Shown here: positions 1 through 4,830 of the stretch, piece by piece
How the letters are laid out: every line of letters begins with the position of its first letter
How positions within the stretch are numbered: position 1 is the first letter of the stretch
Source of the DNA: a virus
Taxonomy: Duplodnaviria > Heunggongvirae > Uroviricota > Caudoviricetes
Direction: 5' to 3' (one strand)
DNA length: 14,905 nucleotides
Virus record (IMG/VR): IMGVR_UViG_641522650_000010
Program-made: the position numbers and the translations under genes
Notes under the pieces: model-generated
Database searches by the model: none
The model's input: the letters and a program-made list of their open reading frames with translations, nothing else
Told to the model about the DNA's origin: nothing

Positions 1-420
1 ATGGAACAGAAAGCATTATCTGCAGAATCCCGCAGATCATTTTCAAATGAGTTTAAACTTCAAATGGTTAAACTGGCTTCACAACCAGGAGCCTCTGTTG
101 CCCGTATTGCCCGGGAACACGATATCAATGATAACCTGCTGTTCAAATGGCTCAGGCTCTGGCAGAACGAAGGGCGCATATCGCGGCGTCTTCCGGTAAC
201 AACCTCTTCTGACACTGGCGTTGAATTATTACCTGTGGAGATAACGCCGGATGAGCCGAAAGAACCGGTGGCTGCTCTTACTCCGTCTTTATCTACTCAG
301 ACTACAGTTAGTGCCAGCTCCTGCAAGGTGGAGTTCCGTCACGGTAACATGACGCTGGAAAATCCTTCACCAGAGCTGCTCACAGTGTTGATCCGTGAAC
401 TGACCGGGAGGGGACGATGA
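1..420 (+). CDS. IS66-family accessory protein TnpA (orfA, HTH)
   Basis: ORF beginning MEQKALSAESRRSFSNEFKLQMVKLA, a transposase-type HTH N-terminus; first gene of the IS66-type trio. ATG sits at position 1, so the true start could lie upstream of the window. Confidence 0.7.
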   Translation: MEQKALSAESRRSFSNEFKLQMVKLASQPGASVARIAREHDINDNLLFKWLRLWQNEGRISRRLPVTTSSDTGVELLPVEITPDEPKEPVAALTPSLSTQTTVSASSCKVEFRHGNMTLENPSPELLTVLIRELTGRGR

Positions 421-767
421 TCTCACTCCCGTCAGGCACCCGCATCTGGCTCGTTGCTGGGATAACCGATATGCGTAAGTCTTTCAACGGGCTGGGTGAA
501 CAGGTACAGCATGTGCTGAATGATAATCCCTTCTCCGGTCACCTGTTCATCTTCCGTGGCCGACGGGGTGACATGATTAAAATCCTGTGGGCTGATGCTG
601 ATGGTCTGTGCCTGTTCACCAGACGCCTGGAGGAAGGCCAGTTTATCTGGCCTGCTGTGCGTGACGGCAAGGTATCCATTACCCGCTCGCAACTGGCAAT
701 GCTCCTCGATAAGCTGGACTGGCGTCAGCCAAAAACATCCCGCCTTAACGCTCTGACAATGTTGTAA
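417..767 (+). CDS. IS66-family TnpB (orf2)
   Basis: 116 aa ORF (MISLPSGTRIWLVAGITDMRKSFNGL...) recognised as the conserved IS66 Orf2 family; ATG 417-419 overlaps the upstream stop. Confidence 0.8.
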   Translation: MISLPSGTRIWLVAGITDMRKSFNGLGEQVQHVLNDNPFSGHLFIFRGRRGDMIKILWADADGLCLFTRRLEEGQFIWPAVRDGKVSITRSQLAMLLDKLDWRQPKTSRLNALTML

Positions 768-769
768 AA

Positions 770-2389
770 ATGTCATGGCCGGATTATAAAAACGGCCATG
801 AATCAAAAATACCTCATTCGCATTGCAGAACTGGAATGCCAGCCCGTCAGAAAGACCAGCAACTGAGTCTGGTTGAAGAGACGGAGGCCTTCCTGCGCTC
901 TGCACTGGCCCGCGCCGAAGAAAAGATCGAAGAAGATGAACGGGAAATAGAACATCTGCGGGCTCAGATAGAAAAACTGCGCCGGATGCTGTTCGGTACC
1001 CGTTCTGAAAAACTGCGTCGTGAAGTTGAACAGGCTGAGGCCCTGCTGAAACAACGCGAACAGGACAGTGATCGTTACAGTGGGCGGGAAGACGATCCGC
1101 AGGTTCCCCGCCAGTTGCGACAGTCTCGTCATCGTCGCCCGTTACCGGAGCATCTGCCCCGCGAAATAAATCGCCTGGAGCCAGAAGAAAGCTGTTGCCC
1201 GGAGTGTGGCGGTGAGCTGGATTATCTGGGGGAAGTCAGCGCAGAACAACTGGAACTGGTGAGCAGCGCTCTGAAAGTGATCCGCACAGAACGGGTAAAA
1301 AAAGCCTGTACAAAATGTGACTGCATCGTTGAAGCACCGGCACCATCCCGTCCGATAGAGCGTGGTATCGCGGGCCCGGGGTTACTTGCCCGCGTGTTAA
1401 CGGGAAAATACTGCGAACACCTGCCACTGTATCGTCAGAGTGAAATTTTTGCCCGTCAGGGTGTCGAACTGAGCCGTGCATTACTCTCCAACTGGGTTGA
1501 CGCGTGCTGCCAGTTAATGACGCCGCTGAATGATGCTCTGTACCGTTATGTGATGAACAGCCGCAAAGTTCACACTGATGACACACCAGTAAAAGTGCTG
1601 GCACCGGGCAGGAAGAAGGCGAAAACAGGATATATCTGGACGTATGTCCGGGATGACAGGAATGCCGGTTCGCCAGAGCCTCCGGCGGTCTGGTTCGCCT
1701 ACTCACCGGACCATCAGGGTAAACATCCGGAGCAGCACCTTAGTCCCTTCCGGGGTATCCTGCAGGCAGATGCGTTTAATGGTTACGATCGGCTGTTCAG
1801 TGCCGAACGAGAAGGCGGCGCGTTGACGGAAGCAGGATGCTGGGCTCATGCGCGGCGCAAAGTCCACGATGTATATATCAGTACCAAAAGCGCGACAGCG
1901 GAAGAAGCCCTGAAACTAATCGGTGAGCTGTACGCCATCGAGCACGAAATACGCGGGTTGCCGGTGTCTGAACGCCTGGCGGTCAGGCAAATGCAGAGTA
2001 AACCGCTACTGACTTCCCTGTATAAGCTGATGCAGGAGAAAGAACACACGTTATCGAAAAAATGCCGTCTGAGAGATGCGTTCCGGTATATCAGGAAGCA
2101 CTGGGTTGCGTTGTGCAACTTCAGTGATGATGGTCTGGCTGAGGCGGATAATAATGCCGCGGAAAGAGCGCTTCGTGCAGTCTGTCTCGGAAAGAAAAAC
2201 TTTATGTTCTTCGGCAGCGATCACGGTGGAGAGCGTGGTGCGCTACTGTACGGGCTGATCGGCACCTGCCGACTGAACGGTATCGATCCGGAAGCGTATC
2301 TGCGCTATATCCTGAGCGTACTGCCGGAATGGCCTTCCAACCGTGTTGACGAACTCCTGCCATGGAACGTAGCACTCACCAATAAATAA
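770..2389 (+). CDS. IS66-family transposase TnpC
   Basis: 539 aa ORF with N-terminal coiled-coil/leucine-zipper-like region (EIEHLRAQIEKLRRMLFG), CxxC..CxxC zinc-finger-like motifs (CCPECGG ... CTKCDC) and a large catalytic core, as in IS66 TnpC. True start may be downstream of the first ATG. Confidence 0.8.
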   Translation: MSWPDYKNGHESKIPHSHCRTGMPARQKDQQLSLVEETEAFLRSALARAEEKIEEDEREIEHLRAQIEKLRRMLFGTRSEKLRREVEQAEALLKQREQDSDRYSGREDDPQVPRQLRQSRHRRPLPEHLPREINRLEPEESCCPECGGELDYLGEVSAEQLELVSSALKVIRTERVKKACTKCDCIVEAPAPSRPIERGIAGPGLLARVLTGKYCEHLPLYRQSEIFARQGVELSRALLSNWVDACCQLMTPLNDALYRYVMNSRKVHTDDTPVKVLAPGRKKAKTGYIWTYVRDDRNAGSPEPPAVWFAYSPDHQGKHPEQHLSPFRGILQADAFNGYDRLFSAEREGGALTEAGCWAHARRKVHDVYISTKSATAEEALKLIGELYAIEHEIRGLPVSERLAVRQMQSKPLLTSLYKLMQEKEHTLSKKCRLRDAFRYIRKHWVALCNFSDDGLAEADNNAAERALRAVCLGKKNFMFFGSDHGGERGALLYGLIGTCRLNGIDPEAYLRYILSVLPEWPSNRVDELLPWNVALTNK

Positions 2390-2419
2390 GCGTCAATACG
2401 GTGCTCCGTTGACGCTTAC
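2390..2419. repeat. Right terminal region of the IS66-family element, containing an internal palindrome
   Basis: aagcgtcaa (2389-2397) and ttgacgctt (2409-2417) are reverse complements around a 11-nt spacer; the terminus on the complementary strand reads GTAAGCG. The opposite IR is outside the window, so the exact boundary is inferred. Confidence 0.5.
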
Positions 2420-3495: not shown

Positions 3496-3506
3496 TGGAT
3501 TTGCCC

Positions 3507-4412
3507 CTATATTTCCAGACATCTGTTATCACTTAACCCATTACAAGCCCGCTGCCGCAGATATTCCCGTGGCGAGCGATAACCCAGCGCACTATGCGGA
3601 TGCCATTCGTTATAATGCTCGAACGCCTCTGCAAGGTTCTTTGCTGCCGTTAACCCGTCTGGTTTGGGCATGATACTGATGTAGTCACGCTTTATCGTTT
3701 TCACGAAGCTCTCTGCTATTCCGTTACTCTCCGGACTCCGCACCGCCGTGTTCTTCGGTTCAAGTCCCAACATCCGGGCGAACTGGCGTGTTTCATTAGC
3801 CCGGTAGCATGAACCATTATCCGTCAGCCACTCCACTGGAGACGACGGAAGATCGTTGCCGAAGCGGCGTTCCACCGCTCCCAGCATGACGTCCTGTACT
3901 GTTTCACTGTTGAAGCCACCGGTAGTCACCGCCCAGTGCAGTGCCTCACGATCACAGCAGTCCAGCGCGAACGTGACACGCAGTCTCTCTCCGTTATCAC
4001 AGCAGAACTCGAACCCGTCAGAGCACCATCGCTGATTGCTTTCTTTCACGGCCACTCTGCCTGTATGTGCCCGTTTCGATGGCGGTACAGCAGGTTTTCG
4101 CTCAAGCAACAGCGCATTCTGGCGCATGATCCGGTAAACACGTTTGGCATTGATCGCAGGCATACCATCAAGTTCTGCCTGTCTGCGAAGCAGCGCCCAT
4201 ACCCGACGATAACCATACGTGGGCAGCTCTCCGATAACATGGTGTATACGGAGAAGCACATCCGTATCATCAGTGTGACGACTGCGGCGGCCATCCATCC
4301 AGTCATCGGTTCGTCTGAGAATGACGTGCAACTGCGCACGCGACACCCGGAGACAACGGCTGACTAAGCTTACTCCCCATCCCCGGGCAATAAGGGCGCG
4401 TGCGCTATCCAC
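3507..4412 (-). CDS. insD: IS2 transposase InsD (orfB)
   Basis: 301 aa [26 protein letters not shown]... recognised as IS2 InsD; DDE integrase core. Confidence 0.9.
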
Positions 4413-4735
4413 TTTTTTGCCCGTCCATATTCAACGGCTTCTTTGAGGAGTTCATTTTCCATCGTTTTCTTGCCGAGCAGGCGCTGGAGTTCTTTAATCT
4501 GCTTCATGGCGGCAGCAAGTTCAGAGGCAGGAACAACCTGTTCTCCGGCGGCCACAGCAGTAAGAATTCCTTCCTGGTATTGCTTACGCCAGAGAAATAA
4601 CTGGCTGGCTGCTACACCATGTTGCCGGGCAACGAGGGAGACCGTCATCCCCGGTTCAAAGCTCTGCTGAACAATTGCGATCTTTTCCTGTGTGGTACGC
4701 CGTCTGCGTTTCTCCGGCCCTAAGACATCAATCAT
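4370..4735 (-). CDS. insC: IS2 InsC (orfA, HTH)
   Basis: Internal ATG at 4735..4733 gives the 121 aa product [26 protein letters not shown]... recognised as IS2 InsC; the ORF-track start further upstream is an alternative-codon extension. Confidence 0.9.
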
Positions 4736-4825
4736 CTGTACTCCAATGACTAGTCTAAAAACTAGTATTAAGACTATCACTTATTTAAGTGATACTGGTT
4801 GTCTGGAGATTCAGGGGGCCAGTCT

Positions 4826-4830
4826 ACTTA
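4826..4830. repeat. IS2 target-site duplication, right copy (CTTAC)
   Basis: Direct repeat of 3491-3495 flanking the IS2 termini. Confidence 0.8.

Follow-up and report, generated by a model that had tools for sequence, protein, structure and literature searches.

Nesting of one insertion sequence (IS) within another, duplication of the target at points of insertion and the presence of duplication-less IS copies at points of rearrangement are standard in IS biology. Shigella reference chromosomes contain between 229 and 348 IS copies, and IS1, IS2, IS4, IS600 and IS911 have expanded in all Shigella species, where they generate differences between strains and loss of genes (Hawkey et al. 2020, PMC7373316). 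The stretch of DNA analysed here, hereafter the window, comprises the 14,905 base pairs (bp) of the virus record IMGVR_UViG_641522650_000010 and harbours four IS placed around or within the remnant of a lambdoid prophage: an IS66-family element (1-2419), IS600 (2420-3353), IS2 (3496-4826) and IS911 (14244 onward). We consider it almost certain that this region is a record of successive IS events in a defective lambdoid prophage located near yecN in Shigella boydii CDC 3083-94. The nested IS cluster is real and cleanly resolved, but it represents already-known biology and is ordinary for Shigella.

A look-up of the 349-amino acid (aa) phage methylase encoded in the window returned ten loci (L003 to L012). 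When the window was compared by blast with these loci, one of them, L008, was 100% identical across all 14,905 bases. It corresponds to positions 1946336-1967385 of CP001063.1, the chromosome of S. boydii CDC 3083-94, in reverse orientation, and window positions were obtained as 18770 minus the L008 coordinate. The window extends from the tnpA start codon of the IS66-family element to the called start of IS911 orfB, and therefore both outer IS are cut by its edges. Sequence lying outside it, i.e. the left end of the IS66-family element, the 5' half of IS600, the chromosomal flanks and the far end of IS911, was taken from L008. The chance of a flank match was considered to be about 1e-3 (p) for 5 bp and about 1.5e-5 for 8 bp. 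A search against Rfam gave no match within positions 1-4830.

The IS66-family element lies on the plus strand and is represented in the window by the rightmost 2,419 of its 2,505 bp. The whole element occupies positions 16351-18855 of L008, where its left end is located 86 bp before window position 1. Pfam domains were found in the three genes encoded on the same strand, namely tnpA (1-420; HTH_Tnp_1, 3.5e-15), tnpB (417-767; TnpB_IS66, 2.6e-36) and tnpC (from 770 or 836 to 2389; LZ_Tnp_IS66, zf-IS66, DDE_Tnp_IS66 with 5.6e-96, and DDE_Tnp_IS66_C). The right inverted repeat (IR) ends with GACGCTTAC, its last base being 2419. A complete 2,506-bp copy of the element, 99.5% identical, is present in E. 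coli FDAARGOS_943 between nimT and nimR; it starts with GTAAGCGTAAAC, ends with GACGCTTAC and is bordered on each side by its own 8-bp duplication, AGCTAAAA. Because this copy ends at the same base, position 2419 can be taken as the right end of the element in the window. In L008 the left junction reads GCAACAGCGTATTTTG/GTAAGCGTAAAC (the slash marks the boundary, here and below), and the 8 bp that precede the element also follow its right end as the target duplication GTATTTTG (2420-2427), which corresponds to IS600 positions 331-338.

From 2420 to 3353 the window continues with IS600 (IS3 family, plus strand), which shares 99.5% identity with copies labelled 'IS3-like element IS600 family transposase'. 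Coordinates within IS600 were set against a complete 1,264-bp copy (L001 1172-2435), which placed window position 2420 at IS600 position 331 and 3353 at position 1264, the right IR finishing with CAGTACACCTCA; the single base at 2419 also matches IS600, by coincidence. Blast ends had suggested a right end at 3359-3365, where the bases beyond 3353 are a chance extension. The window alone shows just the 3' 934 bp of IS600 and lacks the other end of the IS66-family element, and both IS600 and IS911 stand in this block without target duplications, so the junction might have been thought to derive from recombination or deletion between separate elements, with only a fragment of IS600 left. Such an origin is very improbable, given that in L008 IS600 positions 1-338 are found directly beyond the IS66 left end, GTATTTTG is repeated and the two IS600 halves, minus the duplication, add up to exactly 1,264 bp. 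The IS66-family element was thus inserted into a complete IS600. An earlier reading of the letters alone (the sequence-only reading) had proposed that one IS had knocked out another, an IS3-family element, with an IS66 end at 2419, an orfA stop at 2454-2456 and an orfB frame open back to the junction. All these points hold, the orfB frame being open even further, up to the tnpC stop at 2387-2389, and the 8-bp repeat that the same reading expected at the left IS66 end is there, 86 bp outside the window.

The IS66-family element entered IS600 at position 330/331, past the frameshift site but still within orfA: the A AAA AAG slippery site lies approximately 8 bp upstream of this point and the orfA stop 35 bp downstream. 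What remains in the window of orfA is its tail (2421-2456, plus strand), reading YFAQESLKNTR before the stop, and orfB, also on the plus strand, is open from 2420, with a first ATG at 2492, to 3310 (Pfam HTH_21, rve, rve_2 and rve_3). On the other side, orfA now terminates within the left IR of the IS66-family element, giving a 102-aa product. The features required for the -1 frameshift between orfA and orfB are therefore all present, with 2,513 bp of inserted DNA between them, and we regard this as a disrupted IS600 copy and not as a non-member of IS600. Transposition of the 2.5-kilobase (kb) element into position 330/331, making the 8-bp duplication, would have left orfB on one side and orfA, together with the promoter and the frameshift site, on the other, with loss of OrfAB and conservation of both IS600 ends. 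Judging from IS3-family biology, this copy is probably unable to make OrfAB and hence non-autonomous, though its two ends are intact. We also observed that IS600 orfB and tnpC share one frame, the only interruption being the TAA at 2387-2389, followed by 30 bases without a stop (2387-2420); the shared frame is probably a coincidence.

The element inserted in IS600 agrees with described members of the IS66 family (such as ISEc8, ISEc23, ISEc43 and IS679) in its tnpA-tnpB-tnpC organization with HTH_Tnp_1, TnpB_IS66 and DDE_Tnp_IS66 domains, its length of about 2.5 kb, imperfect terminal IRs beginning with GTAAGCG and an 8-bp target duplication. The left IR starts with GTAAGCGTAAACTGACC and the right one, in reverse complement, with GTAAGCGTCAACGGAGC; 25 of 40 terminal positions matched in a script comparison, and 8-bp duplications flank both the L008 and the E. 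coli copies. Copies labelled 'ISEc43 family', at about 93% nucleotide identity, are its nearest labelled relatives. Compared with the FDAARGOS_943 copy, ten substitutions were found together with a 1-bp deletion after position 843, near the 5' end of tnpC. Approximately 15 codons at the start of tnpC are altered by this deletion (843/844), and the TnpC start chosen by gene callers is 836, giving a protein of 517 aa versus 530 aa from the E. coli start.

The second insertion event concerns IS2 (IS3 family), which is complete (1,331 bp, 3496-4826, minus strand) and shares at least 99% identity with copies labelled 'IS3-like element IS2 family transposase', whose matches end at 3496 and 4826. Both orfA (4780-4370) and orfB (4412-3507), on the minus strand, are intact and carry the Pfam domains HTH_Tnp_1, HTH_21, rve and rve_3; their overlap contains the slippery site A AAA AAG. 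IS2 lies between IS600 and the nanS-p-like gene, 142 bp from the former and 8 bp upstream of the start codon of the phage DUF1378 gene, and is bordered by the 5-bp sequence CTTAC at 3491-3495 and 4827-4831. In the nine other loci (L003-L007 and L009-L012) IS2 is absent and the flanks overlap by a single CTTAC, that is, they show the empty site. These results indicate that IS2 arrived by transposition. Since it was present in L008 only among the ten loci, its insertion would be the most recent event and strain-specific. The sequence-only reading had also deduced transposition from a CTTAC duplication; its left copy was correctly placed, but the right copy had been put at 4826-4830, which reads ACTTA, and the distance to IS600, given as 150 bp, has to be corrected in view of the IS600 end at 3353. 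In length, identity, integrity of both frames and canonical 5-bp duplication this copy does not depart in any notable way from reference IS2 (IS2 group, 1,331 bp), and what is particular to it is an insertion unique to CDC 3083-94 among the ten loci. Several of the top IS2 blast matches ran 5-30 bp into the flank beside the IS2 right IR (3440-3495), an extension that could reflect chance among ~24,000 places or similarity between targets.

The situation at the other two boundaries is different in kind. IS911 (IS3 family, minus strand) is represented by its first 662 bp from the right IR, which starts with TGAAGTGGTCAACAAAAACTGGCC (14244-14905). Copies labelled 'IS3-like element IS911 family transposase' match it at 99.8% identity, and a copy in E. 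coli O121 differs from it by two substitutions, without any indel; between its TG and CA ends the element measures 1,249 bp. In L008 it continues past the window until it abuts a 5'-truncated yecN. The IS911 flanks are AAC and GCT, phage DNA on one side and, on the outer side, yecN without its first 68 nucleotides, and the 3-bp target duplication is absent. Similarly, no 3-bp duplication was found around IS600, whose flanks, GTA and GAT, belong to unrelated DNA: on the left an ABC ATPase gene truncated at nucleotide 263 and, on the other side, the phage DUF1378 gene truncated at codon 44. The lack of duplications and the unrelated flanks mean that IS600 and IS911 mark rearrangement junctions rather than simple insertions, and for IS600 the GTA and GAT flanks indicate that it was rearranged after insertion. 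The truncated DUF1378 gene (3351-3488, minus strand) keeps 44 native codons, corresponding to positions 1-44 of the 59 of the Pfam profile, and it now ends at a TGA stop codon contributed by the IS600 terminus; the intact gene of an E. coli O104:H4 prophage (L013) encodes 64 aa and continues as GAAAATC/AGCGCCAG. IS-mediated rearrangement or deletion at both edges would have removed the integrase/immunity arm and the lysis/morphogenesis arm of the prophage, leaving what remained fused to the truncated yecN and to the truncated ABC ATPase gene. Otherwise both elements conform to their references. With IS600 (IS3 group, 1,264 bp) the window copy shares the TG and CA ends, the orfA/orfB layout, the slippery site and its high identity, and it differs in being split at 330/331, in lacking the 3-bp duplication and in having flanks from unrelated DNA; with IS911 it shares the TGAAGTGG termini and the 99.8% identity, and it differs in lacking the 3-bp duplication and in linking phage DNA to truncated yecN, with 662 bp inside the window. 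An IS911-like element at the right edge, and four different IS bounding or interrupting the prophage, had both been recognized by the sequence-only reading, the prophage now being defined as a lambdoid remnant with a replication gene at one end and DUF1378 at the other, and with Q, a methylase, tRNAs and nanS-p in between.

Both chromosomal breakpoints are collinear in E. coli 13E0725, where they lie 20.3 kb apart (NZ_CP020092.1 2290181-2310529, against L008 3278 and 19194). The segment between them contains yecE, yecD, aspS, nudB, yebC, ruvC, ruvAB, znuBCA, mepM, lpxM and part of a sugar-utilisation island, so that in S. boydii the IS911-prophage-IS600 block replaces a 20.3-kb yecE-lpxM segment that is contiguous in 13E0725. 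As the phage genes are bracketed by IS, and as the 3,777-bp IS600 carrying the IS66-family element retains both IS600 ends and is conceivably a substrate for other IS600 copies acting in trans, we considered whether the block might be a functional composite mobile unit carrying phage genes instead of a product of passive decay. This is most unlikely: the bracketing elements differ (IS911 and IS600) and hence do not form a composite transposon, neither of them has a target duplication, the block occupies one chromosomal place in all ten loci, and no second copy of the IS66/IS600 junction (0) was found among 5,426 E. coli genomes.

Comparison of the ten loci also bears on the order of the events. 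The IS911 and IS600 junctions are common to all of them, and the IS66-family element is inserted in IS600 in every locus whose contig reaches the insertion; these shared features are therefore likely to be the older ones. The latest step would have been the entry of IS2, with its 5-bp duplication, into the 142-bp interval between IS600 and the nanS-p-like gene, in the CDC 3083-94 lineage only. None of the complete E. coli genomes (0) covered at least 80% of window positions 1-5400, and the IS arrangement is apparently confined to the Shigella lineage.

Nothing was found that contradicted this account of successive IS events in a defective prophage, although three points weigh against accepting it in its simplest form. 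Firstly, the IS66 insertion and the IS600-associated rearrangement occur together in every related locus extending as far as the junction, and either of the two may have come first. Secondly, aspS is essential, and the 20.3-kb segment is therefore presumably elsewhere in the S. boydii genome; having been presumably relocated, it makes a plain 'deletion' too simple a description. Lastly, no ISfinder name was assignable to the IS66-family element, for which the PGAP label is just 'IS66 family', and a literature search provided Shigella IS loads as context and no name for this element.

In three sister loci (L006 15020-16537, L003 and L009), the tip of the IS66-family right IR harbours a further IS, the 1,518-bp ISSso6, a member of the IS110 family with subterminal repeats of the IS1111 kind (TATGACTTTCCGTG/CACGGAAAGTCATA). 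There the insertion reads CCGTTGACGCT/ISSso6/CTTAC, that is, GACGCT/TAC with CT on both sides. Most near-full-length E. coli ISSso6 copies among the matches listed have the same IS66 tail at their left and terminate where CTTAC ends, one of them in an ISEc23-type host. Three of the E. coli copies were read and lay at exactly the same position; one of these three was at a look-alike site, CCGTTAGCGCT/TAC, which is found between mokC and nhaA and is not an IS66 end. The recurrence of this short motif suggests that ISSso6 insertion is sequence-targeted. In the window, positions 2405-2419 (TCCGTTGACGCT/TAC), the terminal 15 bp in the right IR of the IS66-family element, are the ISSso6 target position in an unoccupied state. 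On balance, we lean slightly towards considering them a dedicated landing site for ISSso6, in which case the window would hold the empty target of a sequence-guided 'IS-on-IS' parasite. If true, this would establish an ordered nesting hierarchy, from IS600 to the IS66-family element, to ISSso6 and to a further IS3-family element. In L009 a further IS3-family element (15138-17576) was observed inside the ISSso6 transposase gene, making a nest four deep (IS600, IS66 family, ISSso6 and IS3 family). An IS110 element within tnpC of E. coli KSC64 was considered as a possible instance of the event seen in the sister loci and discarded, as it occupies a different site.

Multi-copy IS are a classic cause of misassembly, and the draft relatives L011 and L012 have contig breaks at these very IS, so it should be considered that the pile-up might be an artefact in which repeats were mis-joined in a repeat-rich genome. 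However, the same layout, IS911 followed by the prophage and by IS600 with its IS66-family insertion, was present in eight further junction-spanning assemblies, several of them finished chromosomes, and the lineage-specific additions, IS2 and ISSso6, have exact duplications and empty sites. The probability of an assembly artefact is negligible in our opinion.

The prophage remnant itself (4832-14243, minus strand) was delimited from open reading frames (ORFs), the Pfam tags of L008 and its relatives, tRNAs, Rfam and the comparator L013, and measures about 9.4 kb, or about 9.55 kb when the interval 3354-3495 is included. Its genes encode, in order, a replication protein, a PerC-like protein, a Dam-like methylase, RusA, KilA-N, DUF968 and antiterminator Q, and, after Q, an N6/N4 methylase, three tRNAs, STnc100, DUF1737, a SASA esterase and DUF1378. 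The SASA esterase, assigned by Pfam, is the nanS-p-like product of 564 aa (6651-4957, minus strand). The remnant is collinear with the intact E. coli O104:H4 prophage up to DUF1378, with the same replication-nin-Q-(tRNA)-nanS-p order, after which the latter continues with DUF826, holin, lysozyme, Rz, terminase and portal genes. Integrase, immunity, lysis and morphogenesis or structural genes were absent from the remnant, as judged from its ORFs and Pfam tags. In the late region, between the methylase and DUF1737/nanS-p, Rfam detected the small RNA STnc100 on the minus strand with 139.5 bits (7141-7345), adjoining a tRNA cluster (7421-7670, minus strand) composed of Met-CAT, Arg-TCG and Arg-TCT. 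The first of these is probably Ile2, since the equivalent gene is annotated as Ile in the O104:H4 relative. In Stx phages stx is carried at this position; here the 349-aa N6/N4 methylase is found instead, upstream of the tRNAs.

The value of this locus lies mainly in annotation, as it defines, for an IS cluster in a published Shigella genome, the precise termini of the elements, their duplications and the relative order in which the events took place. In addition, the absence of duplications at IS600 and IS911 flags a synteny breakpoint of about 20 kb, comprising aspS, ruvABC, znuABC and lpxM, which may be useful for reconstructing rearrangements in the lineage. More generally, the locus illustrates a known process, in which IS activity erodes prophages and chromosomal genes in Shigella. 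With that process as described (PMC7373316) it has in common IS2, IS600 and IS911, gene truncation, variation in insertions and rearrangement at IS copies. It differs in that the window represents one locus of the phenomenon, and in that the IS66-family element and the ISSso6 of the sister strains fall outside the five 'common' IS.

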